Shown here: positions 624 to 63,205 of the stretch, one piece after another | Numbering within the stretch: the stretch's first letter is position 1 | Layout of the letters: each line of letters opens with the position of its first letter | IMG/VR virus record: IMGVR_UViG_3300043177_000234 | From: a virus | DNA length: 64,000 nucleotides | Strand: one strand, 5' to 3' | Program-made: the position numbers and the translations under genes | The notes under the pieces: model-generated | Database searches by the model: none | What the model saw: the letters and a program-made list of their open reading frames with translations, nothing else | What the model was told of the DNA's origin: nothing

Positions 624-699
624 TGGTGGAGCTGACAGGGATCGAACCTGCGACATCAAGCTTGCAAAGCTTGCGCTCTCCCAGCTGAGCTACAGCCCC
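624..699 (-). tRNA. trnA: tRNA-Ala(UGC)
   Basis: GGGGCTGTAGCTCAGCTGGGAGAGCGCAAGCTTTGCAAGCTTG...GTCAGCTCCACCA; full cloverleaf, G3:U70, encoded CCA. Confidence 0.97.
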
Positions 700-4412: not shown

Positions 4413-4914
4413 CTACGGGCTCCCGGATATCTCTAAAATGAGCAGTTAGAGCATTTAGTGCAAAAGTACGTATCTTCTGTGGCCAATTATTTTGGCTAAG
4501 TGCGATAGGTAGATTTGCCTTCCATAGTAGGAGCGCATAGGTGCGCGAGGCCGGCAAACCTGTCATATTAAAACTACGCAAGTGTTTTAGTTGTGTGGAA
4601 AAGACTCTCTGAACTTTTCCAATCAGTTTGGGGTCTAAACTCTTTCTTAGCTCGGATTATAAGATCTGGGCCGCCTCAGAGGCTCCAAAAAGATTCAATT
4701 CACTCATGTGCGATAGAGTTTTGTAGCCACCGGAATTACCCGTGTGGTTCTGTGAAATAGGAATACGCTGCCTGTATGTAGATTTACTACAGTGTAACTT
4801 TCTTCGGAAGCTTGAGCGGTCAGAGGCCACAGATCAGTTTCTGAAATAGACTTCCCGAGATTTTTTACTGCAAACTCTGGCACAAAGGTACCGCAGGTCG
4901 GAAGATTTTCCAAT

Positions 4915-5236: not shown

Positions 5237-5366
5237 TGGTGGGGACGGAGGGACTCGAACCCTCATGCTGTTTAGGCGCAGGAATCTTGGCGATTGGTGT
5301 CGGAGTCGAACCAACATATACCTTACCAATCAAATCCTGTGTGTCTACCAGTTCCACCACGTCCCC
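5237..5366 (-). tRNA. trnL: tRNA-Leu(UAG) interrupted at 34/35 by a 44-nt minihelix insert (5288-5331)
   Basis: Removing 5288-5331 gives an 86-nt class II tRNA: GGGGACG/CGTCCCC-ACCA, CAGGA-TTTAGAT-TCCTG arm, long variable arm. Confidence 0.88.
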
Positions 5367-5399
5367 ATACTAATTATTTACGATACATGCGGAGGGCTT

Positions 5400-5831
5400 A
5401 TGGACCTATACTTTGAAGATGTTGACTGCTATATTAGCGTAGAGCCGGAAGATTTCAGCGAAACTTTTGTTGTTGATGCCGAGATTTCCGATGCAGCCGC
5501 TGACCTACTCATTACTGCAAATGAACTTGATGAGGTGGGATTTTCCTCCTTAGCCAATACTATGGACTCCATCCTGATGAAGTTAGCGGCAAAGTATCAT
5601 GGCCGTACAGTTACACTTAACAAGCCATTTAGGACGCCGAAGGGCCCTAAGAAATTCAGCGTATACACTAAAAATGAGAAGGGTAACGTAGTCAAGGTTA
5701 ATTTCGGAGACCCAAACATGGAGATTAAACGCGATATACCGGCTCGCCGTAAATCATTTAGAGCACGTCACAAGTGCGATAATCCCGGCCCCAAGTGGAA
5801 GGCGCGCTACTGGTCATGCAGAATGTGGTGA
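5400..5831 (+). CDS. Conserved large-phage protein with LxxxANELDxxG motif and basic C-terminal domain
   Basis: GGAGG upstream of ATG 5400; C-terminus KPFRTPKGPKKFSVY...NFGDPNM...ARYWSC is recalled from large phages. Confidence 0.7.
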   Translation: MDLYFEDVDCYISVEPEDFSETFVVDAEISDAAADLLITANELDEVGFSSLANTMDSILMKLAAKYHGRTVTLNKPFRTPKGPKKFSVYTKNEKGNVVKVNFGDPNMEIKRDIPARRKSFRARHKCDNPGPKWKARYWSCRMW

Positions 5832-6026
5832 GCTTGTCACTTAAATTCATCGCTCAAATCGTATACCCCCGAAAAACGAATCAGCTCACGTTTCGCGGAA
5901 ATCCCCGCGCGACTCATTCGTAGTTAAAACTTTCTGAGCAGACTCTGGACGAAGCCTCGTTTCAATATGGCGGCCTGCACTGGAGTAATCATCTCCTTCT
6001 CTGTAAATGTCACGGCCATTTTATAC

Positions 6027-6737
6027 TTACTCCTTTACGAGTATAACCTGATGCTGCTCCAGCCATGCATCTGGTAGATGCCGAGGTCGCGCATTGTCCA
6101 AGAAGTGTTTGCGCCAAAAAGCAGTTACCCTCTCCTCCCCCAGATCAGCAACAACCTTGTCTGCCCAACAGTCCATATCCTCGCGAATTCTCGTCTGCTC
6201 TTCAATAAAACCAGCAAGAGCTGCTGTGTTATTGTGCAGATGCGAGGGTAGCTTCGCCCACATTTTTGGGAGGGCATTTGGATGAAGCATCTCAGCTCTT
6301 TCATACAAAGCCTTGGCGATGCGAAGCGACTCGACTACCCGGTTCCATTTCTGCTTATCAATCAGCGCATTTTTGAGAATGGTCTTTTCTGCCTCTGCAG
6401 TGCGCTCATAAGTATCATGGCAGGATACGCAAAGTGCCAGAACGTCGTATCCATTGTGGCGCTTGTACTTTTCCCTGAATGACCTGCGAAAACAGTACGG
6501 CACTACGTGATGGCGCTCTAGATTTTTCTCTGTGCCACACACCACGCATTTACTTGCGCGCGGCAGTAGCTCCACATCGTAACTGACGCCTCGGCCAGCA
6601 TGTTCGAAATTGAGCTTGAACTCCCTATCTGAAATACGAGATGCTAAATTGCGGCCTACATACCACTCCATGCGCTTGCGATCTACATAGGCGAGTGTCT
6701 CGCCTGTATGTGAAATCATTTTGCAGTTGTCGTACAT
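6027..6737 (-). CDS. HNH-like nuclease resembling the C-terminal domain of EXD2
   Basis: YDNC...WY...CVVCG...HHVVPYCFR...HNGYDVLALCVSCH. Confidence 0.75.
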   Translation of the reverse strand: MYDNCKMISHTGETLAYVDRKRMEWYVGRNLASRISDREFKLNFEHAGRGVSYDVELLPRASKCVVCGTEKNLERHHVVPYCFRRSFREKYKRHNGYDVLALCVSCHDTYERTAEAEKTILKNALIDKQKWNRVVESLRIAKALYERAEMLHPNALPKMWAKLPSHLHNNTAALAGFIEEQTRIREDMDCWADKVVADLGEERVTAFWRKHFLDNARPRHLPDAWLEQHQVILVKE

Positions 6738-6756
6738 GGCATCGTCTTTTTGAAAA

Positions 6757-6832
6757 TGGAGCCGGCAACCAGAATTGAACTGGTGACCTCCTGCTTACAA
6801 GGCAGATGCTCTACCTGCTGAGCTATACCGGC
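6757..6832 (-). tRNA. trnT: tRNA-Thr(UGU)
   Basis: GCCGGTATAGCTCAGCAGGTAGAGCATCTGCCTTGTAAGCAGG...TGCCGGCTCCA. Confidence 0.95.
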
Positions 6833-7065
6833 GTAAACCTTACCTCTCTATACTACAGCGCCTAAGGTCGGAGGGCTGCTCCTAAATCCTAGAGAGTGAG
6901 ATCCCAAATCATTATTTTTGCCGTACGTCAGATTGGGAATTGAGTACGAGCAGAGTAGGGCCCGCATTCATTACATAAGTAATAGAGCGGGTTCACCATC
7001 TCATGTTTCCATGTGGCAACTAATCTCTAATCGTAGCCGAAGCCTTAGATTGCATCGAGATTATG

Positions 7066-7196
7066 TGGTGGCCTGAGAGGGACTCGAACCCTCATGCCTG
7101 TGAAGGCGGTTGATTTTTGGTGGAGGATATTGGAGTTGCACCAATCACACCTACGTCCCCCGAGTCAACTGTGTCTACCAGTTCCACCATCAGGCC
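7066..7196 (-). tRNA. trnL: tRNA-Leu(CAA) interrupted at 34/35 by a 44-nt minihelix insert (7118-7161)
   Basis: Removing 7118-7161 gives an 87-nt class II tRNA: GGCCTGA/TCAGGCC-ACCA, GTTGA-CTCAAAA-TCAAC arm, variable hairpin GCCT-TCAC-AGGC. Confidence 0.88.
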
Positions 7197-8743: not shown

Positions 8744-8870
8744 TAGTGGGCCCGGTGGGACTCGAACCCACACCGCTTTTATTCCAAAAAATGATAACGA
8801 TTCTCTGTCGTACCCAAAGGGTCAGGTGGTGAGAACCACTAGTTTTGTGCTACCGTTACAACACGGGCCC
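8744..8870 (-). ncRNA. tRNA frame carrying a permuted Y-like module (possible GGA anticodon hairpin)
   Basis: GGGCCCG/CGGGCCC acceptor, D and T arms; module GUGGUUCUC-ACCAC-CUGACCC-UUU-GGGU[A]CGA-CA-GAGAAUCGU-UAUC; 3' end ACUA. Confidence 0.65.
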
Positions 8871-10972: not shown

Positions 10973-11101
10973 TGGTGGAGGGGGCTGGACTCGAACCAGC
11001 GACACAGGGCATTTCATGCGATAACCGATTTCTGTCGGAACAGGAGTTCAAAAAGTTGAAATCGAATTTGTTCCCTGCTCTACCAACTAAGCTACTCCTC
11101 C
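10973..11101 (-). tRNA. trnF: tRNA-Phe(GAA) with a 53-nt permuted Y-like insert (11020-11072) in the anticodon stem
   Basis: Removing the insert gives a 76-nt tRNA with GGGGC-ATGAAAT-GCCCT arm, GTGTC variable loop and ACCA. Confidence 0.78.
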
Positions 11102-11411: not shown

Positions 11412-11534
11412 TGGCGGCGACATCCCGAATCGAACGGGAAACGCGCGTTTAACAGACGAGAATAATCTTCAATCGGACCTCGGGTCGAGTGGCGAAGATC
11501 ACTTTTTCGTGTGATACCATTTCACCATATCGCC
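11412..11534 (-). tRNA. trnN: tRNA-Asn(GUU)-type gene with a 49-nt permuted Y-like insert (11459-11507) in the anticodon stem
   Basis: Removing the insert gives a 74-nt tRNA: GGCGATA/TGTCGCC-GCCA, CGCGT-CTGTTAA-ACGCG (5 of 5 pairs), G73. Confidence 0.8.
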
Positions 11535-18469: not shown

Positions 18470-18897
18470 TCTTGTGCTCCCTTATAGTGAAGATCGCAGA
18501 CCGTGCTCAGCCACCCGTTGGAATTTCTAGTGGAACCTGGGGCACCGCACTCTTCGCAAACAGTGCGGCTACGCTCTTCAAAATGATTTATGATTTCATC
18601 GATAGTTGGATTTTGTCCGGTCACATATAGCCTGAGCGCCCCGAATTTCTCCTTGATCTGAAGGATATTTCCACTCCATCCGGCTTGACGCAACTGTTCG
18701 AAACACTCGCTCAGCAGGCCCTTCCAACCTGGACCAACGGAGCCTTGACGAAAAGAGTGATAGGATGGATCGATCTGGGCCACCCATTCCTGAAATTCGA
18801 TGCTGTAATTACGTTCATCGGTCGACATATAGCTGGCTCCTTCGAAGACCGCGCTCAGTGAAATCCTGTACGGGCGCGAATGCCGGAGAGTCGTCAA
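18466..18897 (-). CDS. Conserved phage hypothetical protein with C-terminal Zn ribbon
   Basis: GWKGLL...QIKEKFGALRLY...CEECG...TVC. Confidence 0.7.
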   Translation of the reverse strand: MTTLRHSRPYRISLSAVFEGASYMSTDERNYSIEFQEWVAQIDPSYHSFRQGSVGPGWKGLLSECFEQLRQAGWSGNILQIKEKFGALRLYVTGQNPTIDEIINHFEERSRTVCEECGAPGSTRNSNGWLSTVCDLHYKGAQE

Positions 18898-19318
18898 GCT
18901 TTATGGCAAATGGGATCAGCAGATCTGGAAGAGAGTCGTAGTTTACCGTATGCTCGGCATACATCCATTCGCCATATAATGTGAAGCCGGCTTCCAGCGC
19001 ACGAGAGAGCTCTCTAAAAAGAACCCTGTTATCGTACAGCCAATTCCATATTGGCCGGAACTGCAATTAGCTGTAGTTTCTCGCTTTACATATCCCTTAA
19101 GAAGGATGTGCTCACGATTTCCTACGATAATATCGCCGATGCCATCCCACTTAATGCGAACATTCGCACCATCAATCTTTTCTTCTACCAGAATATTTCG
19201 TGACGATAGGAATTTCCACCTGGAATGTTCGGGAAGGACTATATCATCCTTTGCTATCGCTCCTGACCCCCGGCAGATGTGGTGTCTTCGGGTATCTTTG
19301 TAGATTCTTTCGCTGCAT
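18815..19318 (-). pseudogene. ATP-dependent RNA-ligase-like gene, two frameshifts at homopolymer runs
   Basis: Reconstructed MQRKNLQRYPKTPHLPGSG...EEKIDGANVRI...NREHIL...LYGEWMYAEHTVNYDSLPD; KxDGxN adenylation motif. Confidence 0.7.
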
Positions 19319-19683
19319 ATTCGCTACTCTTTATGTAATGTAGTATGTGAGCCTGGGCAGCATCTTTAATGCAGGAAAAACACAGGCCAGTGTCGTGAAA
19401 CTCTGGCCTTGAATATCTCGCACTACATTTGATACAATTAACCTCAGTATCTGCCAAAGGCATTTCCCAAACGTCTATATCTTTAATACTCACTCTGAGT
19501 CTCCACTATCTGAGCATAGATCCGACTCCACAGAGCGCTCTTCTGTGCCAGCATCAACAAGTGATGTATTGGTGTCTGGGGAGCCCCTGAGTAGGGCCAG
19601 TACTCCGGCGATGAGGCATGCGACTAATAAAAGTGCCCCGACTACCTTAAAACTTCCAAGAACTTCTTTCATCATATATAACC

Positions 19684-20832
19684 TCATATATCTATTCTTT
19701 TTGAGAGAATAGAAATACACAATTCCTCGATCCTTTTCATGTCAGGCTTATGCGGAATTGAGTACTTTTTTGTGTTGTAAATTTCAGTACAAAGAGCGTC
19801 TTCTGTTAGGAAGAACTCCTCCAGCTTGTCATAGCTCCACGCACCGGCACGGATGGCCACTAATTCATCTGAGTCGATACCCACTCTATTTACGTTTACT
19901 TTGCCATCTACAAGGATCTCGCGACACATTCTCATCAGTCTAACTAGATGACTGGCGTGCTTTGTATCGTACCCGTACTTTTCCTCCAGAGCCGCACGCG
20001 CTGGATTTCGCGCTTTTTTCCACTGATGATATCGGGACCAATCATCTTGGGCATGACGAAATCTCCTCTCCTTTTCCAGGAGATGAATAAAGTTCTCATC
20101 ATATCCAATGCTCCGGGCAGCACTCTTCCATTTAGAATCTGTAGTAGACATGATTTCGGCCAGCATCAAATTGATCTTGCCCAAAATAGATATACGGTCA
20201 GCCTCTGAGGTGACAGCACTTAGATCTGTCTCCCACTCATCAGTTTTCTTTTGAATAGATGCCACGGCGGCCTCTAGCTGATTCTTTGGTATTAGACCAA
20301 CAGCAGGAAGATCAAATTCCTCACGTGTAGGCGGCCCTTTTGGTGGATTAAGGAGATAGCTCCTGTGTGTCTTGATGCGCTTAAACTGCGCAGCGGAGTA
20401 CCCTGAGAAGGTATGCTTTGCCTTGGCTGACAGGAAGAGGTTGCCATTATCTCTAAGCTCCCTTCCCTCTTTAGAGCAAACTCTCACATGCGCATCATCA
20501 CAAAACAGAACATCTAGAATGTTAGGATTCGCGTCAGCCGCAAGACTCATGAATTTGCGCAATTCGTATACTGATCCCTCGAGTTTTTCCCTATGAGAGA
20601 TTTCACGTTCCTCATCGGACAGTAGCGGGAGGAAGGCTGCAATATTGTCCGGCGAATCAGCCTGCTCGAATGCATGATTCAAACCCAGATATGTTTCCAT
20701 TGGAGGTATCGCAATACCCTTCACATCCACATCTGAATCTGCGCGATGGATCCCATATGCTCTGGAGCCCGCCAATGTCAGTAAGATAGTGTGCTTAACG
20801 AGGTCAAAGTACATGTCATCATCCCATCTCAA
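19684..20832 (-). CDS. Pol-beta superfamily nucleotidyltransferase, RlaP-like
   Basis: LAGSRAYGIHRADSDVDVKG motif; YDTKHASHLVRLM C-terminal motif. Confidence 0.8.
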   Translation of the reverse strand: MRWDDDMYFDLVKHTILLTLAGSRAYGIHRADSDVDVKGIAIPPMETYLGLNHAFEQADSPDNIAAFLPLLSDEEREISHREKLEGSVYELRKFMSLAADANPNILDVLFCDDAHVRVCSKEGRELRDNGNLFLSAKAKHTFSGYSAAQFKRIKTHRSYLLNPPKGPPTREEFDLPAVGLIPKNQLEAAVASIQKKTDEWETDLSAVTSEADRISILGKINLMLAEIMSTTDSKWKSAARSIGYDENFIHLLEKERRFRHAQDDWSRYHQWKKARNPARAALEEKYGYDTKHASHLVRLMRMCREILVDGKVNVNRVGIDSDELVAIRAGAWSYDKLEEFFLTEDALCTEIYNTKKYSIPHKPDMKRIEELCISILSKRIDI

Positions 20833-24554: not shown

Positions 24555-25046
24555 TTACTTTTCCGGAAGCTTGACTATGGAGACGGATGCGCGATCCTTA
24601 ACATGCTCAGAGAAGCGTTCCAGTAAGAAGAGGTAGTCGTCCCACTTTCCTCCAGCCATTCCACAACCAATGCCATATGGAAATGCTATACTGCTTAAGT
24701 CTGGCAGCAGTGATATCTTATGCAGACACCTGTAGAAATACCTGAGCCGCGCTTGAGCGCCATCTAGCTCGGATGCCGGATAGATGCGGTTACTACCAGG
24801 ATAGTACTGTCCCATCATGTTGATAACAAATCGCTGCTGAATGCCGTCGCCGCACACTACTATACTGCCCGGTTCATCGACCATTTTGGATGCAGCGCGA
24901 GCGCTATAGACATCGGCATAGGGAAAGCGCTGGAAGATTGCCTTGGCTAGTCCGGCAGCATGAGATGTTAGGCAGTTAGTTTGGTGTGCTATGTATTGCG
25001 CATCCGAATCAATTATGTCACCATCAACAAAACTGAGATTTGTCAT
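24555..25046 (-). CDS. Macro domain (ADP-ribose/Appr-1''-p processing) protein
   Basis: GDIIDS...IAHQTNC...AAGLAKAIF...IAFPYGIGCGMAGGKW. Confidence 0.9.
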   Translation of the reverse strand: MTNLSFVDGDIIDSDAQYIAHQTNCLTSHAAGLAKAIFQRFPYADVYSARAASKMVDEPGSIVVCGDGIQQRFVINMMGQYYPGSNRIYPASELDGAQARLRYFYRCLHKISLLPDLSSIAFPYGIGCGMAGGKWDDYLFLLERFSEHVKDRASVSIVKLPEK

Positions 25047-25492
25047 TGTAGATCTAGCTCTATACTTTCAATTACAAATTCACCAGTCGGAACAGGATCG
25101 GTGTACTTTATACCAACCGGCAGGTACTTAAGGGTGGCGTGTGGCACATATTCTTTCCACGCATGCTGGACGGGGATGCCTTCGGCCTCCAGCTTCTCCC
25201 AAAGTGATTTGTGTAATTTCTCCAGCGACGGGTCGGCATCTATTGCCACACACCACGGCACACCATAATCACCTGCGGGAAAAGACCTGAGATTACCGAA
25301 TCTACATTTAATTGGCGGACACTCACGCGTCTCTTTAGAAACAACCTCGCGAAGCCTGGGAATTGCCTCTTTCTCAATATCTCCAACAAAGAGTACTGTA
25401 CAGTGGGGAACGCTATCGTCGTCCCCGCCCCTATCTTCTGGGAAGAACTTATGTACACTATCTGGAAGTGGGGCGCATATGTATGCCTTCAA
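25043..25492 (-). CDS. 2H phosphoesterase (LigT/ThpR 2'-5' RNA ligase family)
   Basis: PHCTV and PHATL motifs. Confidence 0.85.
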   Translation of the reverse strand: MKAYICAPLPDSVHKFFPEDRGGDDDSVPHCTVLFVGDIEKEAIPRLREVVSKETRECPPIKCRFGNLRSFPAGDYGVPWCVAIDADPSLEKLHKSLWEKLEAEGIPVQHAWKEYVPHATLKYLPVGIKYTDPVPTGEFVIESIELDLQ

Positions 25493-25716
25493 TTTACAGC
25501 TCCAGTGTCGCGCAGCTCCTTGTACTTTCCATGATATTCCACCACATCAAAGGCATTCATCAGATCACCAGATACGACCGCAGCAAGCTCTGCGGTTAGA
25601 ATCTTAACTGCTGCAGGGCAAAGTGCTTGGTACATCTGAATCTCGGATTCAAAGTGGCCAGAATTATTGAGCGACTGCAGTAATTCGGCCCTCCTATTGT
25701 AACGAATAGGCATCAC
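25489..25716 (-). CDS. Small hypothetical protein
   Basis: ORF track; 4-nt overlaps on both sides. Confidence 0.55.
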   Translation of the reverse strand: MMPIRYNRRAELLQSLNNSGHFESEIQMYQALCPAAVKILTAELAAVVSGDLMNAFDVVEYHGKYKELRDTGAVN

Positions 25717-26288
25717 TCACCTCTATAACCATGATGGTCGGCTGGCTTCCAGCTTTTCTTTGCCATACGAGCAATCACTTCCTCTAGTGACACTGGGGCG
25801 TATGAGTTGGCATCTACTCCGACATCCATGCTCAGTGCGGTGCGATCATCGGGCAGCGAACCATGACTATGTCCGTATAGGTGAATTGCGCCATGGTGTG
25901 ATTTGTTCCACACGCGCATGGCATAGTGGCACATCACAATCTTTGTGCCGTGCCTAACGCCCTTTTCTGCCGGCAGGTCAAGTTCAAAAAGCTTATGAAC
26001 GGCACGGAAAGCCGCGCGAAATTCCGGCGAATTGAGGCAACCCCTATCATGGTTTCCTTCAATCAAAACCTTATTGCCATTCAGTCGATTGAGAACTCGC
26101 ACAGCGCAGTCGGGCTTGCTGAGCGCAAAGTCCCCTATTACATACACGCAATCGTCATAAGATACTCTGCTGTTCCAATTGCGAATCAGAGCCTCATCCA
26201 TCTCATCTACATTAGAGAATGGTCGATTACAGTATTTGATGATATTGGCGTGACCGAAGTGCAGATCACTCGTGAACCATAGTGCCAT
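25713..26288 (-). CDS. Calcineurin-like metallophosphoesterase
   Basis: SDLHFGH, GDF, GNHD, HLYGHSH. Confidence 0.92.
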   Translation of the reverse strand: MALWFTSDLHFGHANIIKYCNRPFSNVDEMDEALIRNWNSRVSYDDCVYVIGDFALSKPDCAVRVLNRLNGNKVLIEGNHDRGCLNSPEFRAAFRAVHKLFELDLPAEKGVRHGTKIVMCHYAMRVWNKSHHGAIHLYGHSHGSLPDDRTALSMDVGVDANSYAPVSLEEVIARMAKKSWKPADHHGYRGE

Positions 26289-26823
26289 TCAGAAAATTCC
26301 TAATTTCCTCGATGTGAGATGTTGTGAGGCCAATGTCTGAGTCTGGGCAAATTGTGAGTAATCTACCGTGCAGATCGAGGATTCTGCCGTTACGCGCCCA
26401 TTCTTCATGAAATCCATTAGCGTCATCATCGATCCATACCACTTTTCCGCCGGGCTGGGACAGAAATTGTTGCACAGCGCGAGGCTTCCATAAGAAGTCC
26501 TCTGCCGTTCGCCATCCATACATTCCCTCGTAGTGGGGCGGCGGCTTTTCTGCTAGAACTGGGTGCGAAATCCAGTCAAAGTGCAACCCAATGTTGGCAT
26601 GAGCGTGATATCCCCACGTCGTAAGCCAGTGAGTTTTGCACCCTAATCTCTCCAGGGAGTCTCCCATCTGGCGTGATAGATTCAACTTGTAACGACCAGA
26701 TGCTTTTGTGGAGGTGAACTCTGGTTCAAATACCCAGTCTGGAGACCTCGACGGGGAAAACGGGCACGGGTTTACAACTCCGTCTACGTCTAAGAGAATG
26801 TCACCTTTGGTTTGGTTTTCCAA
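26266..26823 (-). CDS. HAD phosphatase resembling the Swiss-army-knife RNA repair HAD family
   Basis: LLDVDGVVNP...WLTTW...VWIDDD. Confidence 0.75.
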   Translation of the reverse strand: MENQTKGDILLDVDGVVNPCPFSPSRSPDWVFEPEFTSTKASGRYKLNLSRQMGDSLERLGCKTHWLTTWGYHAHANIGLHFDWISHPVLAEKPPPHYEGMYGWRTAEDFLWKPRAVQQFLSQPGGKVVWIDDDANGFHEEWARNGRILDLHGRLLTICPDSDIGLTTSHIEEIRNFLNGTMVHE

Positions 26824-34222: not shown

Positions 34223-34587
34223 TGGTGGAGGTGATGGGACTCGAACCCATGTCCATAAGATATATTATCGAAAGACTTCTACACACTTAGCTCTCTGCTT
34301 GTACTGCCGGGGATCGAACAGGAGCATTCGATACTCGGAGGTGCTGACTATTACTACCAATCACCCTGTCAGCTAAATGATTGGAGGTATGGAATCTATC
34401 TCTACCAGCAGTCACCATACTTCCTACTGGCATCAGCTACCGCTAGGCGATCAGGCCGCGAGAGCTACTGGTGCAAACTCAACATTGTCGTTGGCGTTTG
34501 TATGTTGCCGCAGTTTTTAAAGAGGGCCGCGACTTCCCCTGTGTGCCGTCATCCAACTCAATCCCATGTCGAAACCAAGACACCCCC
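34223..34587 (-). ncRNA. ssrA: tmRNA, tag ANDNVEFAPVALAA*
   Basis: 5' GGGGGTG...TTCGAC; tag ORF GCCAACGACAAT...GCGGCCTGA; 3' GGGTTCGAGTCCCATCACCTCCACCA; G3:U70. Confidence 0.97.
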
Positions 34588-37631: not shown

Positions 37632-39140
37632 TCACTTACCGCCATCAATAGCTGGAATGCGGGCGTAGTCGTCCCAGATCGAATCTAATGTATATTTTGA
37701 CATAAGAGCTGGCGCATAGCTGCAAGGCCCGGCCTCTTGTGTTACAGCATTAATATACATCGAGAAGGCCCCCTCGCTTGTGTGGAACGAGATTGGCGGA
37801 ACTCCGACCTTCTTAAGTTCATTTTTGCACAAAGAAGCGAGAGTTGTGTCTATCGCTAGGTTCGGCATGTATTCCGGCTGAGGGCAGGGGTTCGCACTAT
37901 CCCGCTGTTCTAACAAACGCTCGTGGCTGCCGCCACTCGCTTTCCAATATGAACCATCGCGGTCAAACAGATCCTTCTGCCTCTTTGCCTCCCATGCCTC
38001 CGCTCCCTCGCGGCAAGCCTGCACTCGCGCCGTCCACGGCGCAATCCACTCGGTTTGATTGGGGGCATTATGTACCGGCAGACCGCTCCTGGCAGCAGCA
38101 CCACGACCCGTATCCTTATACCCTAGCAGCGTCAAGCGATGCCCTTCGGCTGCCTCCATCATTTGCTCAAACTCTGCCACTGATACCGTTCCGACAACTA
38201 CCTGGAAGTGTACCTGGAATGGCGGATATTTGGCATGGAAACGCTCTAAGATGCCTCGAATCTGCTCGGCAGTATCTACCGAGAATGCCACAGCAGATAC
38301 CGGCACCTCGGGGATCTCAGCCCAATAGGTTACGTTGCGACTGGTCACATTAACGGTCACGCCCGCGCTATGGAACGCCTCTACAATACGGGCGAAGTCG
38401 GGATGCAGGGTGGGCTCGCCACCACCAAGAGCCACTTCTAGTACGCCCGAGTCACAGAAGCGTTGAGCAAGCGCTTCCAGATGTGCAAGCGGTGCATGTC
38501 GGCCTTGCGGGGTCGAACCTTGGTAGCAGTATGAGCAACCGTATGGGCAATAATCGGTAATCTTGATATCGACCAGTTCGGGCCATGTACCTTTGGCAGG
38601 AGGCTCTTCTCCGGTATGCGTCATGCGAAGTTTGGTCCCAGACCGGCGATCGAAGAGCACAAAGTGGCCTTTGGGATCACGGACTAGGGTCCATGAGTCA
38701 CGGTGTGCGAGTGCTACAGCTCCCGCATCTTGAAATACCGACAGGAGTGGGTGACCATCAGAATTGTCGTTCCCGCCCAGAATAATCACACGATTCATAC
38801 TGATTAGCTGATGGAGAAATGCCGCTACCTCGGGTGAGTTTGTGGGAGCGCCGGTTGTACGGTCGGTAATTGACAGACCCTCATCGCCCCAAACACTCTG
38901 GTGATCGATAGAGGGTTCGTCATTGCCATTGCCCCAAGATCCGGTAACATACCCCATCTGCGCCCGGTAGTACTCTTCTTTGTCGGAGAGCTCTGTGAGC
39001 GTAAAGTCATCCCACCCATAGTCGCCCCAGTTGCTACCATGGGAAGAGGGTGGCGGCGGAGTGCCTGGTGGCAGAATAAGGATGCTGTGCGAGGATGATG
39101 AATTCGTGGCGAAACCGTGGCGGATATTGTGAACTCTCAT
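37632..39140 (-). CDS. Radical SAM protein
   Basis: CPYGCSYC cluster motif, GGGEPTLHP; N-terminal GFATNSSSSHS. Confidence 0.88.
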   Translation of the reverse strand: MRVHNIRHGFATNSSSSHSILILPPGTPPPPSSHGSNWGDYGWDDFTLTELSDKEEYYRAQMGYVTGSWGNGNDEPSIDHQSVWGDEGLSITDRTTGAPTNSPEVAAFLHQLISMNRVIILGGNDNSDGHPLLSVFQDAGAVALAHRDSWTLVRDPKGHFVLFDRRSGTKLRMTHTGEEPPAKGTWPELVDIKITDYCPYGCSYCYQGSTPQGRHAPLAHLEALAQRFCDSGVLEVALGGGEPTLHPDFARIVEAFHSAGVTVNVTSRNVTYWAEIPEVPVSAVAFSVDTAEQIRGILERFHAKYPPFQVHFQVVVGTVSVAEFEQMMEAAEGHRLTLLGYKDTGRGAAARSGLPVHNAPNQTEWIAPWTARVQACREGAEAWEAKRQKDLFDRDGSYWKASGGSHERLLEQRDSANPCPQPEYMPNLAIDTTLASLCKNELKKVGVPPISFHTSEGAFSMYINAVTQEAGPCSYAPALMSKYTLDSIWDDYARIPAIDGGK

Positions 39141-39550
39141 GGAGTGCTCCTAAGTAGGTCTTTGAAGCGCCGCCATCGCGACGGCTTAGGCGGCGGAATC
39201 TCAGCAATGAAATCGTTTGATTCTATATGAAGAGTGATTGTCTCTGGCGTATTGGAAACTGAAAAGAAGTACGGGTAGTGTGCGGCGATTCTATAGTGCC
39301 GCTCGCCTTCTTGAGGGATGAAGTATAGCTGGTATTTGGCGCCGTCGATGGTGGCTGCGGCCTCCATACCTCTTATAGGCGGGCTAAATTCCCACAGTTG
39401 GGGCGGTATTCCATCCGGATAGGCAGCCTCCCATTGTGGTCGATTGTATTGCTGCAAGTCCCATCCTGGTGGAAGTGCTACTGTGAGAGCGCCGGGATAC
39501 TGACGATAGTCCACCGCATAGCGGGAGTTGGGCTTTATCAAAAGTAGCAT
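39137..39550 (-). CDS. Hypothetical protein
   Basis: ORF track; 4-nt overlap. Confidence 0.5.
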   Translation of the reverse strand: MLLLIKPNSRYAVDYRQYPGALTVALPPGWDLQQYNRPQWEAAYPDGIPPQLWEFSPPIRGMEAAATIDGAKYQLYFIPQEGERHYRIAAHYPYFFSVSNTPETITLHIESNDFIAEIPPPKPSRWRRFKDLLRSTP

Positions 39551-40287
39551 AGTTGCAGCCGATACATTAAAGGAACTTCATACTCTCGGGATCGGTCACA
39601 TCATCTGAATCTAGTCCCGGCAGCTCGTATAGGGCGCGGACGTAGTGTGCTCGGTCCAGTCGGTATTCGTGGAGAGATACATCTCGGGGGAGAATTACGC
39701 GGTCGTATGTGGGGTTCCAAATCTGGTTGTAGCCGCCCGGCTCTCCATTGGGCCCATTCAAAAAGCCGGTGTAGAAAATCGCCTTATGAAGGACATTGTG
39801 TGGACTCCACGCCACATCAACGGCATAAATGTTCGCTGCTTCCAGCCACCGGCAGGTGATACAATGGTACGCTTACATGGCGGGGTGAAGAATGTCATGG
39901 CGTACCTTCTTTGGTTTAGGGAAACCCAACTCACTGCCGGCGAATACGCGAATATCAACCTTGGCCTCTCTGGGGGGTACCCTTAGCGAAGTAGGCTCCG
40001 CGATAGTTTTTACCAGACTCGTCTGACTTGGCAAAGCTCAAAACGCTTGAATACCGGCCAGATTGATGAATCATAAATCCAAGCACCTAGATGCTCGGCA
40101 TGATCAGGGTGAAAGGCTGCGTCTTGCAGATCGTGCGGGGACCATGACTTATCGAAGTCCAAAAATGTATCTGGCCGGCGGGCGACTGTCTGCAGTGAGG
40201 TACAGTTGCCTCTCTCGCAACTCTACCCAAAACTCTGGCGGCAATGCTTCTTGGAGAGTATTAAGTGTATGTGGCCTGTACATAAAT

Positions 40288-40599
40288 TCACTTCTTTAGT
40301 TGCGGCGTGCCGTGTGCATCGCACATGATATCGGGGTGTTCCCATAGTTCTTTCTCAAGAGCTTCGATATTACGCTCGGCTTTATGGTAGGCATCCTGCA
40401 TTGAACGCCAGAGTGCGGAGGGTAGCACCTGATTTCTCTTGATATCTTCAGGAGAAAGCGTGGCTAGATTTGTTCCGGCCTGACGCTTTGCCTCGCGAAT
40501 TGGTCGCAGCAGATATTCTTTGAGAAGATCATAGCGCTCGGCAAGTATATTCCATCGATCAATCAACTTCTGTGGGTCCTTCTTCTTGTGAATTGACAT
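40288..40599 (-). CDS. Hypothetical protein
   Basis: ORF track. Confidence 0.5.
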   Translation of the reverse strand: MSIHKKKDPQKLIDRWNILAERYDLLKEYLLRPIREAKRQAGTNLATLSPEDIKRNQVLPSALWRSMQDAYHKAERNIEALEKELWEHPDIMCDAHGTPQLKK

Positions 40600-40756
40600 T
40601 CTTATACTCCTCGGGGTAAGCTCGCTTTTCTATCGGGCGCAGAACCCACAGTCTGTAGGCGTTGAGCGGTACCCAAAAATTGGTAGCCGCCCCCATAAGC
40701 AGAAGGGGTACTGCACCCATCAGCAGTGCAGTGTGTAGTGCTTTGTAGTTCACACA

Positions 40757-41191
40757 TTAAATCCAATCATTGTCACGCTCTATTCCCAACCCCACTGCAT
40801 CAAACTCATCGGAATCTTCTCGATTAGCTCCGAGTGCGGCTAGTGCACGGCTGATTGGTGATGGGGCCGCGCAGCGCTCTTCATTACTACATATCGAGTA
40901 TTTTACTCCGTTCTTCCACCATGTCACATCCTGTTCACCTAGCCCGCCGAAGTATGAGGCGAATGCATGAATGATGTCATGTTCTGGGGTGGCGCGCTCG
41001 CAATTTTGCGTGCTGATCGCAAAGCCTTGATTTAGAACTCGGTAATCTGCGCCGATGGCGCCCATAACTTCCTGTTTAGCGATCCAAGCATTCAAATAGT
41101 ACGCCATAGTACTCTTCCCTTTTCCTCTGCTCTTCTTCTGCGAGGTAGCGTCGAACTTCGGCCATGCGTCTTGCCTCCTCGTCTCGCTCAT
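40757..41191 (-). CDS. Hypothetical protein
   Basis: ORF track; true start probably at MAYY. Confidence 0.45.
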   Translation of the reverse strand: MSETRRQDAWPKFDATSQKKSRGKGKSTMAYYLNAWIAKQEVMGAIGADYRVLNQGFAISTQNCERATPEHDIIHAFASYFGGLGEQDVTWWKNGVKYSICSNEERCAAPSPISRALAALGANREDSDEFDAVGLGIERDNDWI

Positions 41192-42069
41192 CCCGTTTGC
41201 GCCTATAATTTGCAGCGGCGGTGCTTGGACAGTCGGTATAAAACTGGGACGAGAGCCCGCATCCCCACTCCCCGCAGGTACAGACGGGAATTTCTTGAGC
41301 GCACTCTGGACATGGGTGGGAGGGTTGTGTCATATGTAGATCTGTTCGTGCGTGTCGCTTCGGTAGTAGTGACGGTATGGGGAATAGTCATCGCTTTCCC
41401 ATCCTGACCAGGACATCGCCACTCTAACATAAACACGCCAGCCGCCTTCGTGCTTCCAAGTATGATCCTTGTGTACGTACCACCACTTGCCAGGGTAGTG
41501 GCGGCGCAGGAGGGTTATGACTCGCCGCCTATAATTGAATAGGGTTATTGGGAACCTTGGCATATCTGCCATACTAGATACTCGCGTTCCACTTCTTGGA
41601 TTACTATCAAATAATTGCCACTATCCCACAGTTCTTGCGTGGTAAGTGTTACCGTGTCGGACAGCGGGGGCTCCCACCGGTCATGGCCACCTAACTACGC
41701 TGGATACATCTCTTCGAGACGCCTGTCGATGAGGCGGCGTTGTAAATCCAGATTTTCTCTTATAGAACGCGCAGCATGCCTTGTCATCACAAAAAGCGGA
41801 AATAAACGATCGGCCCTAGCGGTGGAGCTGCCGCACATGTCCGACAACTCAGATGCGATTGCATCTAGCAAAGTAGAGTTGTATCATTTGCTGCGCAAAA
41901 GAATACAATCACCTAGGTAGGGTTGAGGCGAATGCGAATATGTCTGTAGTTGCCGAGCGGCACATCTGCTTTGCCACTGCAGCCTCGGCATCTGTAGTTG
42001 ATTGCTGCATACAGTTCTCCCCCAACACACCGCGTATGTACCGTAGTGCGAGTTTTGTATAATTAATTA

Positions 42070-42504
42070 CTACGGCTGTTCGGTAAATACTCTTACATCA
42101 ATTACTTCCGCACCCACAGCAAAGACGCGCCTTACCTCGGCATACGGGGCATAGTTCTGCAGGTCCTCAATAACCTCCTTGACCGTTCGGTTAATCTCCA
42201 CCTGCCCGTGGCGCGGTTTGGTGTGCCTCGCCATGCATACCTGCAATATCTCTTTAGGTGTGCCGGGTGACAGATTTGCAGCCAGATTCTCTAGGAACTT
42301 CTCTCCTGCATATTTTGTGGAGAGTTCCTTGGCGAACAGAAGAAATTCTTCTGTCCCTTCGTCGTCAGGATATTTGTCCTGCTCGGCATCTATCATGAGC
42401 TTGCGCAGTGACCTGCCGTGAAATGCCATGTCTACCATAGAGTCTATTAGAACGTTTAGCTGGGAAAATCTCTTGGCCCTCTCAGCCATGTTGTCACTTG
42501 ACAT
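42070..42504 (-). CDS. Hypothetical protein
   Basis: ORF track. Confidence 0.5.
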   Translation of the reverse strand: MSSDNMAERAKRFSQLNVLIDSMVDMAFHGRSLRKLMIDAEQDKYPDDEGTEEFLLFAKELSTKYAGEKFLENLAANLSPGTPKEILQVCMARHTKPRHGQVEINRTVKEVIEDLQNYAPYAEVRRVFAVGAEVIDVRVFTEQP

Positions 42505-42657
42505 GCGATTCCTTGATTTCGTTGGGCACCACCTGTTGTGTGCGCCAAAAGGCGTGCGTCTGTACGTGTTCGGCCCTGACCCATTTTGCTACTGACTTTC
42601 GAAAATCACGGAAGTGAAATTGCTCGGCCAGTCGAAGTACATAGCCCTCGCACTCAT

Positions 42658-43273
42658 CTAGTCCTCCGACTGATTACGCCCGATAGCGGTGACCCAATCT
42701 TTAAATGACATTGAGCGACACTGTTCGAATGTGAATGACGCCTGCAGTTTTAGCGGGTAGTATTCTGGTAAACCCCCATCTCTGCCCGGTCGAACTTGTT
42801 CTTCTAGAAATTTGAAGCGCTCACAGGAGGGTAGCGGAGACTTGTTAAACCCCCTGTAAACCTCGAGGATTCCCATGTCCATGTCAAGGACATACGCCCA
42901 TTCGCAGAACAGCGAGTGTGCTGCGAATCCAAGATCCAGCGCGACTTCAGGTTCGGGCGTAGCTTGAATATAATTCAGTATCTTCGCACCAAAATCTCTA
43001 TTGAATTGCGGGTGCTTCTTAGCAAACTTGTCAGCGATATCCATTGGTACAAACTTACCTGTTGCCCCCACATCTTTTCACAGAGCCTCGATATATTCGG
43101 GGGAGCGAATCTTGATAGCGTCAAGGTGGTCGCAGAATGCTTCTGTATTCATTTCGGACTTGATAAATTCGAAGACTGTCTTTCCCTGCCCTTCCGGATA
43201 GACGTCCCACTGACAGACTGTGCTACGACAAACTTCCCATTTCGAACTACACATGTAAGATTTCTAGTTCCCA
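42658..43273 (-). CDS. Conserved phage hypothetical protein, frameshifted
   Basis: N-terminus MGTRNLTCVVRNGKFVVAQ... in another frame; C-terminal FCEWAYVLDMD...LEVYRG. Confidence 0.55.
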
Positions 43274-43745
43274 TACTTCTCCCTGTTTAGTTTTCAAAAC
43301 TCGAATTGCATACGCTCGCGCTGGCCTCTGCCTGCTCGCGAGTCTTGAATGTAGCAACTACAAGCCCAGATGGATTGAGGAGTTCGAATCGAAGCGGACC
43401 GCTATCCTTTTCGACGACTTTGTATTCAGTATTTTTGATTGACATTATTTGCTCCTAATTTAGAGGTTGTTGATCTTGCATAACATATGCTCTCCGTTTA
43501 ACCTTTCGCTGCTCCAATCATGGAGTCGGAAGGTGAGGCGGCAGGGGCAGATGCTCAGAAGAGCGTGTACCGGCAGAACCAATGAAAGGCATGTCTTAGG
43601 CGTGGAAAGTGGAGTGTGGTGTTGGGCGGCTCAGCCGGCCGGCCCCTTGCATATGTCTTCCAGATTTGAATGCATTCGTAGAACCCTTCCTCGGTAGTGC
43701 GAGCGACCTCGTGGGCGACGAGGTTTCTCTGTTAGCAAATCTTTT

Positions 43746-44114
43746 CTAGATAACATTTTTCAACTCCGAATTGCGCTTTTCAGCAAACTGCCGAATCTGC
43801 TGCACAGACACATCTGTTAGCTTCCAGTTTTTATCACCAGCCTTCGTGCCAGATGGTATGTGCCACATATTGTAGCAGTTTTCATACAGCGTAACAGCAA
43901 TACATCCGTCTGTGTAGATCAGTGCATGCACCTCGTGTGTCTGCATGTATAGGGACGTGGGGCTGCATTTTACTGTGCCTCCGTCATCGTCTGGAAGATC
44001 GAAGATACTTATGTCTCCAATATACTCTGCATCAACCGGAAATTTATAGTCTTGATGATCTCCGCATTCAACTTCCAGCATTAGCCCATCATGACGAATA
44101 CATCGGATTGGCAA
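43746..44114 (-). CDS. Hypothetical protein
   Basis: ORF track. Confidence 0.55.
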   Translation of the reverse strand: MPIRCIRHDGLMLEVECGDHQDYKFPVDAEYIGDISIFDLPDDDGGTVKCSPTSLYMQTHEVHALIYTDGCIAVTLYENCYNMWHIPSGTKAGDKNWKLTDVSVQQIRQFAEKRNSELKNVI

Positions 44115-44465
44115 GCCATTTGGTGTATGTTCTCGGCCACCGTTCTTTTTTGCAAAATCTATAGTACAATCCCAGCTACAGTAATTGCGCGAGCGAGGAG
44201 CTTCTTTTCTACAATTAATACACTGTGCCGTCTACGGGCCTCACTTAACAAATTGGATTCTATCAAAGAATGGATCTGCCGGAATATCTACCGTTCGAAC
44301 TTTGGGTCCGGCTCCAAACCAGTCTTTGCAGGTATATCGCATGCGCATGGTGCGCTTATTAAAGTGAACGGGCAGTACCTCCACTTCAAAAACTTCGTTA
44401 TGAGGTGAGCTGATGATGAACGCTGTAGTGACCTCAGCAAATACTCGAGGGCATCCCACTTCTCT

Positions 44466-46376: not shown

Positions 46377-46523
46377 TTCCTTGACTCACACATTGTGGGG
46401 CGGGCTTTCGGACACGACCTCCCTAATCTCGGGCTTGGTGTGGAGTTGGCGGGAGGCAATTGTTGTTTGTCGGCCTCAATTGTAAATTTGCTCCACACTT
46501 TACTTGCCGTTTCGGCAAAGCCG

Positions 46524-46961: not shown

Positions 46962-47087
46962 AAATACTCCTATCTTACAGATTAACTATGCCAATGGCAG
47001 AGCCGCCAAAGTATGAGGTAAGTGCTTCTTGCGGGTGGACTTATCATGCCGCTAGGCGGTCTATATCCAAGCCATAATTTAATTACT

Positions 47088-62131: not shown

Positions 62132-63205
62132 CTACTCTCCAATCTTCAATAGGAATGCGTTGTTGATTGCCTTGAATGATGTGCGAGCGGCGCCGCCACC
62201 ATTGAATGCAGTCAGCACAGGAGAGCGGCACTCCGTGGTAGGACGAATGACGATGCCTTCACGAGGATGTCCGTTTGCGTACTTACCCTCCGCACGTTTG
62301 AGAATCGACTCCAGTGTCTCATCCAGCGGCCCTACCCATTCAATCGGAACCGTAGGAATACCGGCCATGTCACAGAAGTGCAGGAAGTCTCGGAAGTCGA
62401 GAAAATCCTGACGCTCAATCGAGTATACCTGAAAGGCGTAGAATTCTTTCTGCTTCAATCCAATGCGATTCGCCTGAATACCTGGACCACAGAACTCTCC
62501 CTGCACTGCGAATCCCTGCGGAATTCGCTCGAAAATGCGCAACTGTCGGGCCATTTGCCAGTGCGGAGAATCTGGCAAATCCTTGACCGCGTAGTTGCGC
62601 ATGCAGACTTTATGAGTGTCGACCCCGCCGTCGTTGTACCGGGCAAACGTCAAACTCTGCCCGTCCATCTTGACTGCGATGTAGCACTCCGCACCACGCA
62701 ATTCATCTAGAATTTCCGGCACAGCCTGTACGCGCGTCTCGTCAGTCTTTGGGAATAGGTGCGTGGGAAAGGCGCCCCCGACTTCGCGGGCAGATGCATG
62801 AATCGGCGGCTTCCATTTGGTAACACCCAGAGCCTCGGTTACATCAAGGCCCTCAGTAGGGGTGATGCCCGCAGGGAGAATAGATACAGGTAGGGCAAGA
62901 CCCTGTGAAAGCACTCCGCGCAGACGCTTCGAACGAAGCTTGAAGTTGTCAGGCCGAGGTACTCGGGGCTGAGGGATAGCGGTGCCATGTTCATCCACCT
63001 TGGGTGAGGGCTGCCAGAGGAAGTCGAACGTTGCAGTGTCGGGAGGAACACTGTCAATCTCGAGGAATACGCAAAGGTCATCGGGTCGGAAGTTGCCTTT
63101 GCCCGACACCAACTGCCAGCCTAGTACCTTCAACCGTTCGATCTTGTCCGCGCCCCCGATAGGATCGACGGATCGCACACGCTGCACAGAGGCGAGTTTA
63201 CGCAT
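62132..63205 (-). CDS. RNA ligase, DRB0094/Rnl5-like family
   Basis: MRKLASVQRV N-terminal OB-like domain, RLRGVLSQGL, PKTDETRVQ, KMDGQS, QGEFCGPGIQAN, REGIVIR, SFKAINNAFL. Confidence 0.9.
   Translation of the reverse strand: MRKLASVQRVRSVDPIGGADKIERLKVLGWQLVSGKGNFRPDDLCVFLEIDSVPPDTATFDFLWQPSPKVDEHGTAIPQPRVPRPDNFKLRSKRLRGVLSQGLALPVSILPAGITPTEGLDVTEALGVTKWKPPIHASAREVGGAFPTHLFPKTDETRVQAVPEILDELRGAECYIAVKMDGQSLTFARYNDGGVDTHKVCMRNYAVKDLPDSPHWQMARQLRIFERIPQGFAVQGEFCGPGIQANRIGLKQKEFYAFQVYSIERQDFLDFRDFLHFCDMAGIPTVPIEWVGPLDETLESILKRAEGKYANGHPREGIVIRPTTECRSPVLTAFNGGGAARTSFKAINNAFLLKIGE

Follow-up and report, generated by a model that had tools for sequence, protein, structure and literature searches.

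Minihelix-shaped inserts of 44 nucleotides at the 34/35 bond of two tRNA-Leu genes of a large uncultured phage, candidates for a minimal tRNA-shaped intron

The stretch of DNA analysed here, 64,000 nucleotides (nt) of the IMG/VR virus record IMGVR_UViG_3300043177_000234 (hereafter the window), carries two tRNA-Leu genes, tRNA-Leu(UAG) and tRNA-Leu(CAA), each interrupted between tRNA nt 34 and 35 by a 44-nt insert that has the shape of a tRNA minihelix. As gene structure, the reading of these inserts as introns is well supported; as RNA biology it is plausible, and the enzymology that we propose for it is a hypothesis with one weak step. The class to which they belong has already appeared in the literature, without dissection or explanation, and the 44-nt inserts, the smallest seen, are its minimal form. 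We give an even chance to the proposal that they are genuine intervening sequences, members of a class of tRNA-shaped introns, and are processed by the route described below. Their removal at the RNA level, yielding working tRNA-Leu, is probable.

Both genes lie on the minus strand. The tRNA-Leu(UAG) gene (5366..5237) is composed of a 35-nt 5′ exon corresponding to tRNA nt 1-34 (5366..5332), insert 1 (5331..5288) and a 51-nt 3′ exon ending in ACCA (5287..5237). The tRNA-Leu(CAA) gene (7196..7066) is composed of a 35-nt 5′ exon (7196..7162), insert 2 (7161..7118) and a 52-nt 3′ exon, again ending in ACCA (7117..7066). The Rfam tRNA model matches both genes despite their inserts (5240-5366, 45.3 bits; 7069-7196, 42.0 bits), and ARAGORN, run with introns allowed, reports one 44-nt insert per gene. 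The coordinates and the insert reading of the original prediction, which had been made from the sequence letters, are confirmed. The two genes correspond to class II tRNAs of the Leu type, with the same D arm (GUG-GAACUGGUAGA-CAC), a long variable arm, A73, an encoded CCA and the anticodon stems CAGGA/UCCUG and GUUGA/UCAAC. In both, 51 nt separate the two halves of the anticodon stem, i.e., a 7-nt loop plus 44 nt; the inserts are located in the anticodon loop of otherwise canonical tRNA genes within a phage tRNA array.

Insert 1 reads GATTGGT-AAGGTATAT-GTTGG-TTCGACT-CCGAC-ACCAATC-GCCA and insert 2 reads GGGGGAC-GTAGGTGTG-ATTGG-TGCAACT-CCAAT-ATCCTCC-ACCA. Their common layout, already recognized in the original prediction, consists of a 7-nt strand, a 9-nt linker, a 5-bp stem with a 7-nt loop, a complementary 7-nt strand abutting the T stem and a terminal NCCA. 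Insert 1 pairs at 7/7 positions of the acceptor-like stem and 5/5 positions of the T stem, with the T-like loop UUCGACU. Insert 2 pairs at 6/7 positions (with a C7.A66 mismatch and a G3:U70 pair) and 5/5 positions, has A73 and presents an unusual T-like loop, UGCAACU. For insert 1, the structure of lowest energy is the minihelix (-12.2 kcal/mol), and for insert 2 the minihelix reaches -12.1 kcal/mol versus a minimum of -13.2 kcal/mol, i.e., 1.1 kcal/mol above this minimum. The pairing at fixed positions was matched by none of 200,000 shuffles for insert 1 and by 21 of 200,000 for insert 2. When both strands of the window were scanned for the same geometry in an anticodon-loop context, only these two sites and one weak chance match came up. 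Both inserts are single copy within the window, and an assignment to dispersed repeats resembling miniature inverted-repeat transposable elements was rejected on that ground. The linkers of both Leu inserts contain AGGT, a motif highlighted in the original prediction; it may be a remnant of an AGGUC variable loop or a mimic of the D-loop GG, but it is not a general feature of such elements, being absent from the Ala-hosted inserts described below. In the minihelix of insert 2, G1-C72, G2-C71, G3:U70 and A73 correspond to the alanine identity set, which is lacking in insert 1; judging from these bases, a released insert 2 minihelix could be a substrate of alanyl-tRNA synthetase.

Exact excision leaves class II tRNAs of 86 and 87 nt, as predicted, which ARAGORN identifies as tRNA-Leu(tag) and tRNA-Leu(caa). 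A Leu anticodon is obtained in both genes only if the split follows nt 34, i.e., after three loop nucleotides (UUU|AGAU giving UAG and CUC|AAAA giving CAA). The junction of the insert corresponds to a 3-nt x 8-nt internal loop beside a 7-bp helix. The restoration of a tRNA is in itself no proof of splicing, because any clean insertion restores the gene when it is removed conceptually.

Relatives of the window were fetched through two anchor open reading frames (ORFs), 6027-6737 and 5400-5831 (143 amino acids (aa)). One contig from a different project and sample (L333; Joint Genome Institute 3300043267) contains both interrupted Leu genes, inserts included, with 100% identity to the window. Because the inserts are identical in this independent assembly, they are not assembly chimeras, a possibility that the original prediction had raised against itself. 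Other relatives encode tRNA-Leu(CAA) and tRNA-Leu(UAG) at the same places without insert, namely L334/L335 (neighbouring protein 80% identical) and L322/L323/L324 (115-kilobase (kb) syntenic contig; neighbouring protein 52% identical). The uninterrupted orthologues of tRNA-Leu(UAG) are found at L322:10813-10895 and in L334, and those of tRNA-Leu(CAA) at L322:9673-9758 and L334:4969-5056. In the alignments with these orthologues, the gap is exactly 44 columns wide; it opens at the first G of the minihelix, closes at the A of its CCA and lies between nt 34 and 35, with the flanks GACUC / AAAAUC and GAUUU / AGA. It cannot be shifted, because the bases at either side of each boundary differ. The intron-less orthologues fix the 34/35 site independently and unambiguously, and the site is the one originally proposed.

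The same bond is occupied in other tRNA genes of these relatives. In L322, the syntenic tRNA-Thr(UGU) gene contains a 45-nt minihelix insert at 34/35 (CUU|...GCAA|GUAA) and a tRNA-Ala(UGC) gene a 48-nt one at the same position (UUU|...ACCA|GCAA), while the tRNA-Ala(UGC) gene of L325/L326 contains a 50-nt minihelix insert at 34/35 with the tail ACAA. The occupancy is reciprocal: the Leu genes are interrupted in the window and intact in L322/L334, whereas the Thr and Ala genes are intact in the window (tRNA-Thr(UGU), 6757..6832; tRNA-Ala(UGC), 624..699; both on the minus strand) and interrupted in L322, the Ala gene also in L325. Within one phage group, the same type of element is found at the 34/35 bond of four different tRNA genes, and this patchwork points to a mobile-intron pattern and not to an ancient fixed feature. 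Protein walks from the 143-aa gene to more distant relatives (P0016, P0018-P0020) reached contigs without tRNAs. Among cultured phages (INPHARED), blastn of both Leu genes matched tRNA 3′ halves only and found no relative, and megablast with 20 kb of the window gave a tRNA-Met match only. Pattern scans of IMG/VR, either for the exact Leu backbone or for the Leu D arm combined with the T arm of the minihelix, did not reveal any relative. As a separate observation on the tRNA genes of L334, its tRNA-Leu(UAG) (2222-2298, 77 nt) lacks the long variable arm and its tRNA-Thr(UGU) (4678-4764, 87 nt) has one, the reverse of the usual class I / class II assignment.

Several comparisons carry signs of selection on structure. 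In the exons of tRNA-Leu(CAA), compensatory pairs relative to the uninterrupted orthologues are present in the acceptor stem (5:68, U-A/C-G) and in the anticodon stem (27:43, G-C/A-U), and the exons of tRNA-Leu(UAG) present two compensatory double changes in the anticodon stem. Stem covariation, to which the original prediction had given weight, was observed in the Ala-hosted inserts of L322 and L325, in which 6/12 stem pairs (3/7 in the acceptor stem and 3/5 in the T stem) differ on both sides while pairing is kept. These two inserts occupy the same site of the same host gene and have in common an odd T loop (GUCAUAC/GUCAUAU), which suggests that they are orthologous, in which case their fold has been maintained through divergence; G3:U70 is kept in both Ala host genes. 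The five inserts of this lineage (two in Leu, one in Thr and two in Ala genes) were found without using their fold. All five nevertheless exhibit the geometry of 7 bp, 5 bp and a 4-nt tail, equalled by 0-45 of 200,000 shuffles, and retain G53:C61 and C56.

The class extends beyond this lineage. We scanned metagenomes with a pattern and then required a valid tRNA after exact excision. Among the matches listed, 7/120 loci of the metagenome scan were relevant, and most matches were tRNA/attachment-site duplications. The exact-excision test led to at least 12 distinct inserts (in 13 places) on metagenome and relatives' contigs packed with tRNA genes. The hosts and inserts encountered were tRNA-Lys with a 50-nt minihelix (L210/L279), tRNA-Thr with a 59-nt insert (L309), tRNA-Asn with full tRNA-like inserts of 70-75 nt (L234, L239 and L318) and tRNA-Gln with an 85-nt insert (L307). 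On the minus strand of L307 (489-563; OIYR01000092.1), a complete tRNA with the anticodon CUA (amber suppressor type according to ARAGORN) is nested in the anticodon loop of another tRNA. The identity of this host is ambiguous: assigning the CCA to the insert makes it Ile(UAU), whereas reading the CCA as the anticodon of the host makes it Trp(CCA). A scan of IMG/VR added two distinct inserts, a nested tRNA in tRNA-Asn (L429) and a 50-nt minihelix at the 34/35 bond of tRNA-Leu(UAA) (L469/L486); some inserts of the wider class are complete nested tRNAs. A Leu-specific pattern, run against the genomes of 185,579 species of Bacteria and Archaea, gave 26 matches, all corresponding to an ordinary tRNA-Leu followed by another T arm, none of them nested.

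In this wider set, the insertion bond varies (34/35, 35/36 and perhaps 36/37). The 3′ 28 nt of insert 2 match the Gln-hosted insert of L307 at 24/28 positions, including the odd UGCAA loop. The 12 distinct inserts all have G53:C61 and C56, as well as a purine at position 57, part of this conservation being imposed by the search patterns. The base preceding the insert is U in 11/12 cases, and the first base is G in 8/12 and C in 4/12. A U at -1 and a G or C as first base fit the known preferences of RNase P, although the first base simply belongs to a G:C or C:G pair.

Sequencing runs bearing on splicing were available for another phage. The 50-nt insert of the L210 tRNA-Lys gene (1740-1789) was compared with four runs. 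In run X7, one contig of depth 2 joins position 1739 to 1790, skipping exactly the insert; this wastewater library is labelled "RNA-Seq cDNA" and was flagged as probably DNA. A second contig, in which 6 other letters replace 56 nt, has the appearance of an allele without intron. The true RNA libraries contain the unspliced form (X11, 1,096-nt contig, record 6) or give little or no coverage. The insert-skipping contig is compatible with splicing and, equally, with an intron-less DNA allele.

Two other kinds of structure came to light in IMG/VR. At L045:6617-6733 (IMGVR_UViG_3300025008_000013), a tRNA-Leu(UAA) gene contains a simple hairpin of 32 nt, with neither acceptor/T shape nor CCA, which we placed at 34/35 because only there is the anticodon kept; it represents, at the classical site of the Leu intron, a short insert of a third kind. 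Most of the matches of a looser first scan belonged to a different, unrelated family of tRNA-like scaffolds, present in more than 100 viral contigs (loci L001-L118, e.g., L039:2397-2523 and L061:1403-1529), with the form AGTCAGG-TG-GCGGAATTGGTAGACGC ... CAGGTTCGAATCCTG-T-CCTGACT-AC. These scaffolds have acceptor, D and T arms of the Leu type and no CCA, and a hypervariable centre of 70-95 nt replaces their anticodon and variable arms.

We propose that each insert is a stripped-down tRNA, of which only the acceptor stem, stacked on the T arm, and a 4-nt NCCA tail are left, and that the precursor would fold as a cloverleaf with the minihelix projecting from its anticodon loop. RNase P would cut at the 5′ base of the minihelix, as in any pre-tRNA, leaving a 3′-OH on U34 or C34, and a tRNA 3′-end endonuclease would cut directly after the last A of the tail, leaving a 5′-phosphate on A35. 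The acceptor and anticodon stems would hold the exon halves together, and an ATP-dependent RNA ligase, encoded by the phage or by its host, would seal the loop, with ...CAGGAUUU|AGAUUCCUG... and ...GUUGACUC|AAAAUCAAC... as the predicted spliced junctions. The same precursor may release a second functional RNA, either a nested tRNA or a chargeable minihelix. As mobile introns do, the elements appear in and disappear from orthologous tRNA genes among related phages.

This route is suggested by the shape of the inserts. Their ends coincide with the exon boundaries, and what they contain is the part of a tRNA that is measured by RNase P, RNase Z and the CCA-adding enzyme. A 7-bp acceptor stem on a 5-bp T stem, a 7-nt T loop, a 3′ strand continuous between the stems, the tails GCCA and ACCA and a G at +1 in both inserts give them the shape of a minimal RNase P substrate; at -1, where U is preferred, one insert follows a U and the other a C. 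Bacterial RNase P cleaves acceptor/T-arm minihelices ending in CCA, leaving 3′-OH and 5′-P ends. The inserts have neither a catalytic core nor an Rfam intron match and must depend on proteins or on RNase P. In the case of the complete nested tRNAs of other contigs, processing of the inner tRNA by RNase P would necessarily break the outer anticodon loop, so that ligation is the only way in which the outer tRNA could work. The assignment of excision and joining to RNase P, a 3′ endonuclease and a ligase is tentative, and we hold it with somewhat less than even confidence. We would say much the same of the broader idea of a third way of tRNA splicing in phages, in which a minimal tRNA-mimic intron turns tRNA end-processing enzymes into splicing endonucleases and an RNA ligase rejoins the loop: it is possible, but we lean slightly to the other side. 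That the interruption gates Leu decoding or hides the anticodon from anticodon nucleases, also put forward in the original prediction, is speculation.

A candidate for the exon ligase, on sequence grounds, is encoded at 62132..63205 on the minus strand. This ORF corresponds to an Rnl5-type ATP-dependent RNA ligase (Pfam RNA_ligase 5e-25; PHA02142 OB 2e-23; PHROG RNA ligase 4e-65), with an N-terminal OB domain followed by a nucleotidyltransferase domain containing a KMDG motif, as in ligases of the DraRnl/NgrRnl type, and it matches the Naegleria gruberi RNA ligase (PDB 5COT) over residues 1-321 (E 1e-43). Other genes of this kind, all on the minus strand, encode a RlaP nucleotidyltransferase (19684-20832; Pfam RlaP 3e-20) and, beside it, a fragmentary RNA-ligase-like ORF (18815-19066; RNA_ligase 9.5e-5, below the curated cut-off). 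The region 18815-19720 contains an RNA-ligase-like gene that appears split over several short ORFs; PF09414 is matched, below its cut-off, by no more than a piece of 83 aa, and a frameshift, an assembly error or decay of the gene could account for this. A cluster of the RNA end-healing type (24555..26823, minus strand; weak to moderate Pfam matches, E 1e-4 to 2e-5) encodes a macro domain, a metallophosphoesterase and a 'Swiss-army-knife' (SAK) HAD phosphatase; Metallophos and Macro reach the curated cut-offs, while Metallophos_2 and HAD_SAK_2 fall below them. This cluster is relevant only if excision leaves cyclic-phosphate ends.

Several observations weigh against the RNase P route. The nested cloverleaf of the whole tRNA-Leu(CAA) precursor has an energy of -35.1 versus a minimum of -46.3 kcal/mol. 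In the lineage of the window, 2/5 inserts end in NCAA and not in NCCA, and the T loops of some inserts are non-canonical (UGCAACU, GUCAUAY). Bacteria with encoded CCA normally dispose of 3′ trailers through an endonuclease that cuts downstream and exonucleases that trim the remainder; this usual trimming would destroy the 3′ exon, so that an exact cut after A76 is the weak step of the model. RNase Z is generally blocked by CCA, with the exceptions of Thermotoga RNase Z and Escherichia coli RNase BN, which cut after CCA. The ligase is located 55 kb from the tRNA genes and belongs to the Rnl5 type, not to the anticodon-loop specialist Rnl1; Rnl5 ligases are known for sealing nicks in duplexes and not breaks in anticodon loops. 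Moreover, three further tRNA genes of the window, all on the minus strand (8744-8870, 10973-11101 and 11412-11534), contain a different insert of 39-54 nt with the common sequence CGACAGARAATCG.TTATC; that of the Phe gene lies within the anticodon stem, at 29/30, and its removal restores the arm of tRNA-Phe(GAA). These inserts have no tRNA shape and no CCA and consequently need another excision route or are unspliced chimeras. The RNase P route cannot remove inserts from the anticodon stem, which hints at a more general excision system. Finally, the sequencing runs that match the window are freshwater DNA metagenomes only, with no RNA run among them.

A more general system could be a dedicated endonuclease of the phage or its host that leaves a 2′,3′-cyclic phosphate and a 5′-OH, followed by healing and sealing, an explanation that we consider unlikely without being negligible. 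Phage 2H, macro, HAD and metallophosphatase proteins, RlaP and a ligase or RtcB would then repair the ends, as in the repair of T4 anticodon loops or in fungal tRNA splicing, and the tRNA shape would be a recognition handle or a trace of the origin of the element and not an RNase P substrate. The gene set of the window (macro, metallophosphoesterase, SAK-type HAD, RlaP and two ligase-like genes) agrees with this view and corresponds to the jumbo-phage RNA repair kit (PMC7824862). The tolerance of NCAA tails and odd T loops among the inserts also agrees with it, as do the anticodon-stem inserts, which are devoid of RNase P-like shape and require some other excision route. On the other hand, our analysis identified no candidate endonuclease, the 3 x 8-nt internal loop and 7-bp stem at the junction do not form a bulge-helix-bulge motif, and the strict 7 + 5 bp with a 4-nt tail, G53:C61 and C56 are exactly what tRNA end-processing enzymes measure. 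Somewhat more doubtful still is the view that the inserts are not spliced, being selfish DNA insertions or deliberate fusions whose RNAs are dead tRNAs or precursors of CCA-ended minihelices and tRNA halves. These products could serve as decoys for host nucleases or toxins that target tRNAs, or provide a chargeable Ala-type minihelix from insert 2, and the RNAs could also be chimeric tRNA-like RNAs akin to the Y-RNA-like chimeras of the same array. A perfect tRNA on conceptual removal is expected of any clean insertion; sporadic presence among relatives, the G3:U70 and A73 alanine identity set of insert 2, the other tRNA chimeras built by the phage and the unspliced form in an RNA library of another phage (run X11) point in the same direction. 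This view is difficult to reconcile with the interruption of both Leu isoacceptors in a 20-kb array without an intact Leu gene, with the compensatory pairing kept by the exons relative to their uninterrupted orthologues and with the persistence of Ala-hosted inserts in two diverged lineages, with covarying stems and retention of the host G3:U70; besides, the inserts are single copy and not dispersed repeats.

Self-splicing by a degenerate group I intron or a small ribozyme at the classical 34/35 site of tRNA-Leu is very improbable. The site is that of the cyanobacterial and plastid tRNA-Leu(UAA) group I intron, and the L045 tRNA-Leu(UAA) gene with its 32-nt hairpin at 34/35 could be cited in favour of such an origin, but 44 nt are too few for a group I core, in line with the original prediction, which had considered the inserts far too short for group I or II introns. 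Rfam gave no intron or ribozyme family, and no match besides tRNA, at E up to 1, and the only nucleotides conserved across the insert family are those of the tRNA T arm. An assignment to group I was rejected, the P3-P9 core (~200 nt or more) and an Rfam Intron_gpI match both being absent; so was one to the introns spliced by the archaeal/eukaryal endonuclease, there being no bulge-helix-bulge and the site being 34/35 and not 37/38. That the inserts arose as an artefact or chimera of assembly has a negligible probability, even though the window comes from a metagenome assembly: both are found base for base in L333, and the same architecture recurs in unrelated assemblies.

The window covers part of the genome of a large uncultured phage; a contig with an identical neighbouring protein reaches 368 kb. 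Its minus-strand tRNA array occupies the first 14 kb, and a transfer-messenger RNA (tmRNA) gene is located ~20 kb beyond it (34223-34587). In standard mode, ARAGORN detects 11 ordinary tRNAs in the window and no tRNA-Leu, both interrupted genes being missed. No further Leu tRNA gene was found within the 20-kb array by ARAGORN on the window and comparison with relatives. All ordinary tRNA genes of the window encode CCA. There is no sign of an alternative genetic code, ORF calls and Pfam matches all being obtained under code 11. An ORF with weak similarity to HNH endonucleases (6027..6737, minus strand; PHROG HNH families, E 5e-6 to 5e-4) sits between the two interrupted Leu genes and also occurs in relatives without Leu inserts. 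The adjoining 143-aa ORF (5400-5831) belongs to PHROG 7595. The 80 C-terminal residues of its protein are 80-93% identical across hundreds of otherwise unrelated viral contigs; tblastn confirmed 594/600 matches to this C-terminal pattern in IMG/VR, and 4,495 proteins were found at E up to 1e-30. A region of ~10 kb (39140-49548) contains no ORF of at least 150 aa on either strand under code 11 and differs in this from the rest of the window.

If the inserts are spliced as we propose, they would represent a protein- or RNase P-dependent route of tRNA splicing in bacteria and phages that is outside the textbooks. The 44-nt versions reduce the element to what must be recognized, so that three purified activities and one short transcript would suffice for a direct test of the hypothesis. 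Since standard tRNA finders miss such genes, the tRNA repertoires of phages are counted too low, which also affects arguments on codon usage that start from them. Related phages, in which the elements are reciprocally present and absent, offer a natural system for studying the spread of introns without ORFs. RNA ligases, frequent in large phages and as a rule interpreted solely as repair enzymes, would, if this is true, possibly have an everyday job.

To our knowledge, the tRNA introns currently recognized in bacteria are limited to the self-splicing group I type and, in rare cases, group II. The group I intron of cyanobacterial and plastid tRNA-Leu(UAA), which we take to lie at the same 34/35 site, resembles the present inserts in its host gene family, its insertion point and its sporadic, mobile-like distribution. 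Group I introns are, however, at least 200 nt long, with a conserved catalytic core, and splice themselves, whereas the inserts are 44 nt long and have no such core. The protein-spliced tRNA introns of Archaea and eukaryotes are likewise short and not self-splicing, and are removed by an endonuclease and a ligase, but they are characterized by a bulge-helix-bulge and position 37/38; neither is present here, the context is bacterial or phage (as indicated by the tmRNA) and no splicing-endonuclease homologue was seen. With minihelix substrates of RNase P and with mascRNA from MALAT1, the inserts have in common a 12-bp coaxial acceptor/T helix, a T loop, a 3′ NCCA and their location within a longer transcript. 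The enzymes that process tRNA ends (RNase P/RNase Z) are known to release units of this type. In those systems the flanks are discarded or are independent RNAs, whereas here they would need to be rejoined into a tRNA, for which we know of no described precedent in bacteria. The anticodon-loop repair of phage T4 (Pnkp and Rnl1) and the kits of jumbo phages share with the proposed route an RNA ligase that reseals a broken anticodon loop, and the ligase, RlaP and phosphoesterases encoded in the window are of the kind reviewed in PMC7824862. Repair of the T4 type answers damage inflicted by the host, while the break would here be programmed by gene structure, and the ligase resembles Rnl5 and not Rnl1.

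The closest known elements are introns of large phages. Devoto et al. (2019; PMC6784885) described "enigmatic" introns in the tRNAs of Lak megaphages, one of them predicted to encode a tRNA; these introns were polymorphic between cohorts and their excision point was re-evaluated from intron-less alleles, with no mechanism being offered. A survey of 2026 noted that tRNA introns of jumbo phages "could encode another tRNA" (PMC13037316). The candidate new intron class of the original prediction has therefore to be narrowed: tRNA-like introns of large phages were already in these two papers, whereas in the literature we found neither minihelix-sized versions nor a mechanistic account of such phage tRNA introns. 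Like those of the Lak and jumbo phages, the present elements interrupt phage tRNA genes in the anticodon region and leave them normal elsewhere, are polymorphic in presence among related phages, include at least one predicted tRNA and have no self-splicing core. The published introns are full tRNA-like or unclassified, were called with the eukaryote mode of tRNAscan and come from gut phages with alternative codes, while the phage studied here is from freshwater. The two papers contain no minimal acceptor/T-arm minihelix, no rule running from the first base to the 3′ tail, no 34/35 site common to several tRNAs and no processing model. In the window, each insert folds as an acceptor/T-arm half exactly from its first base to its 4-nt 3′ tail.

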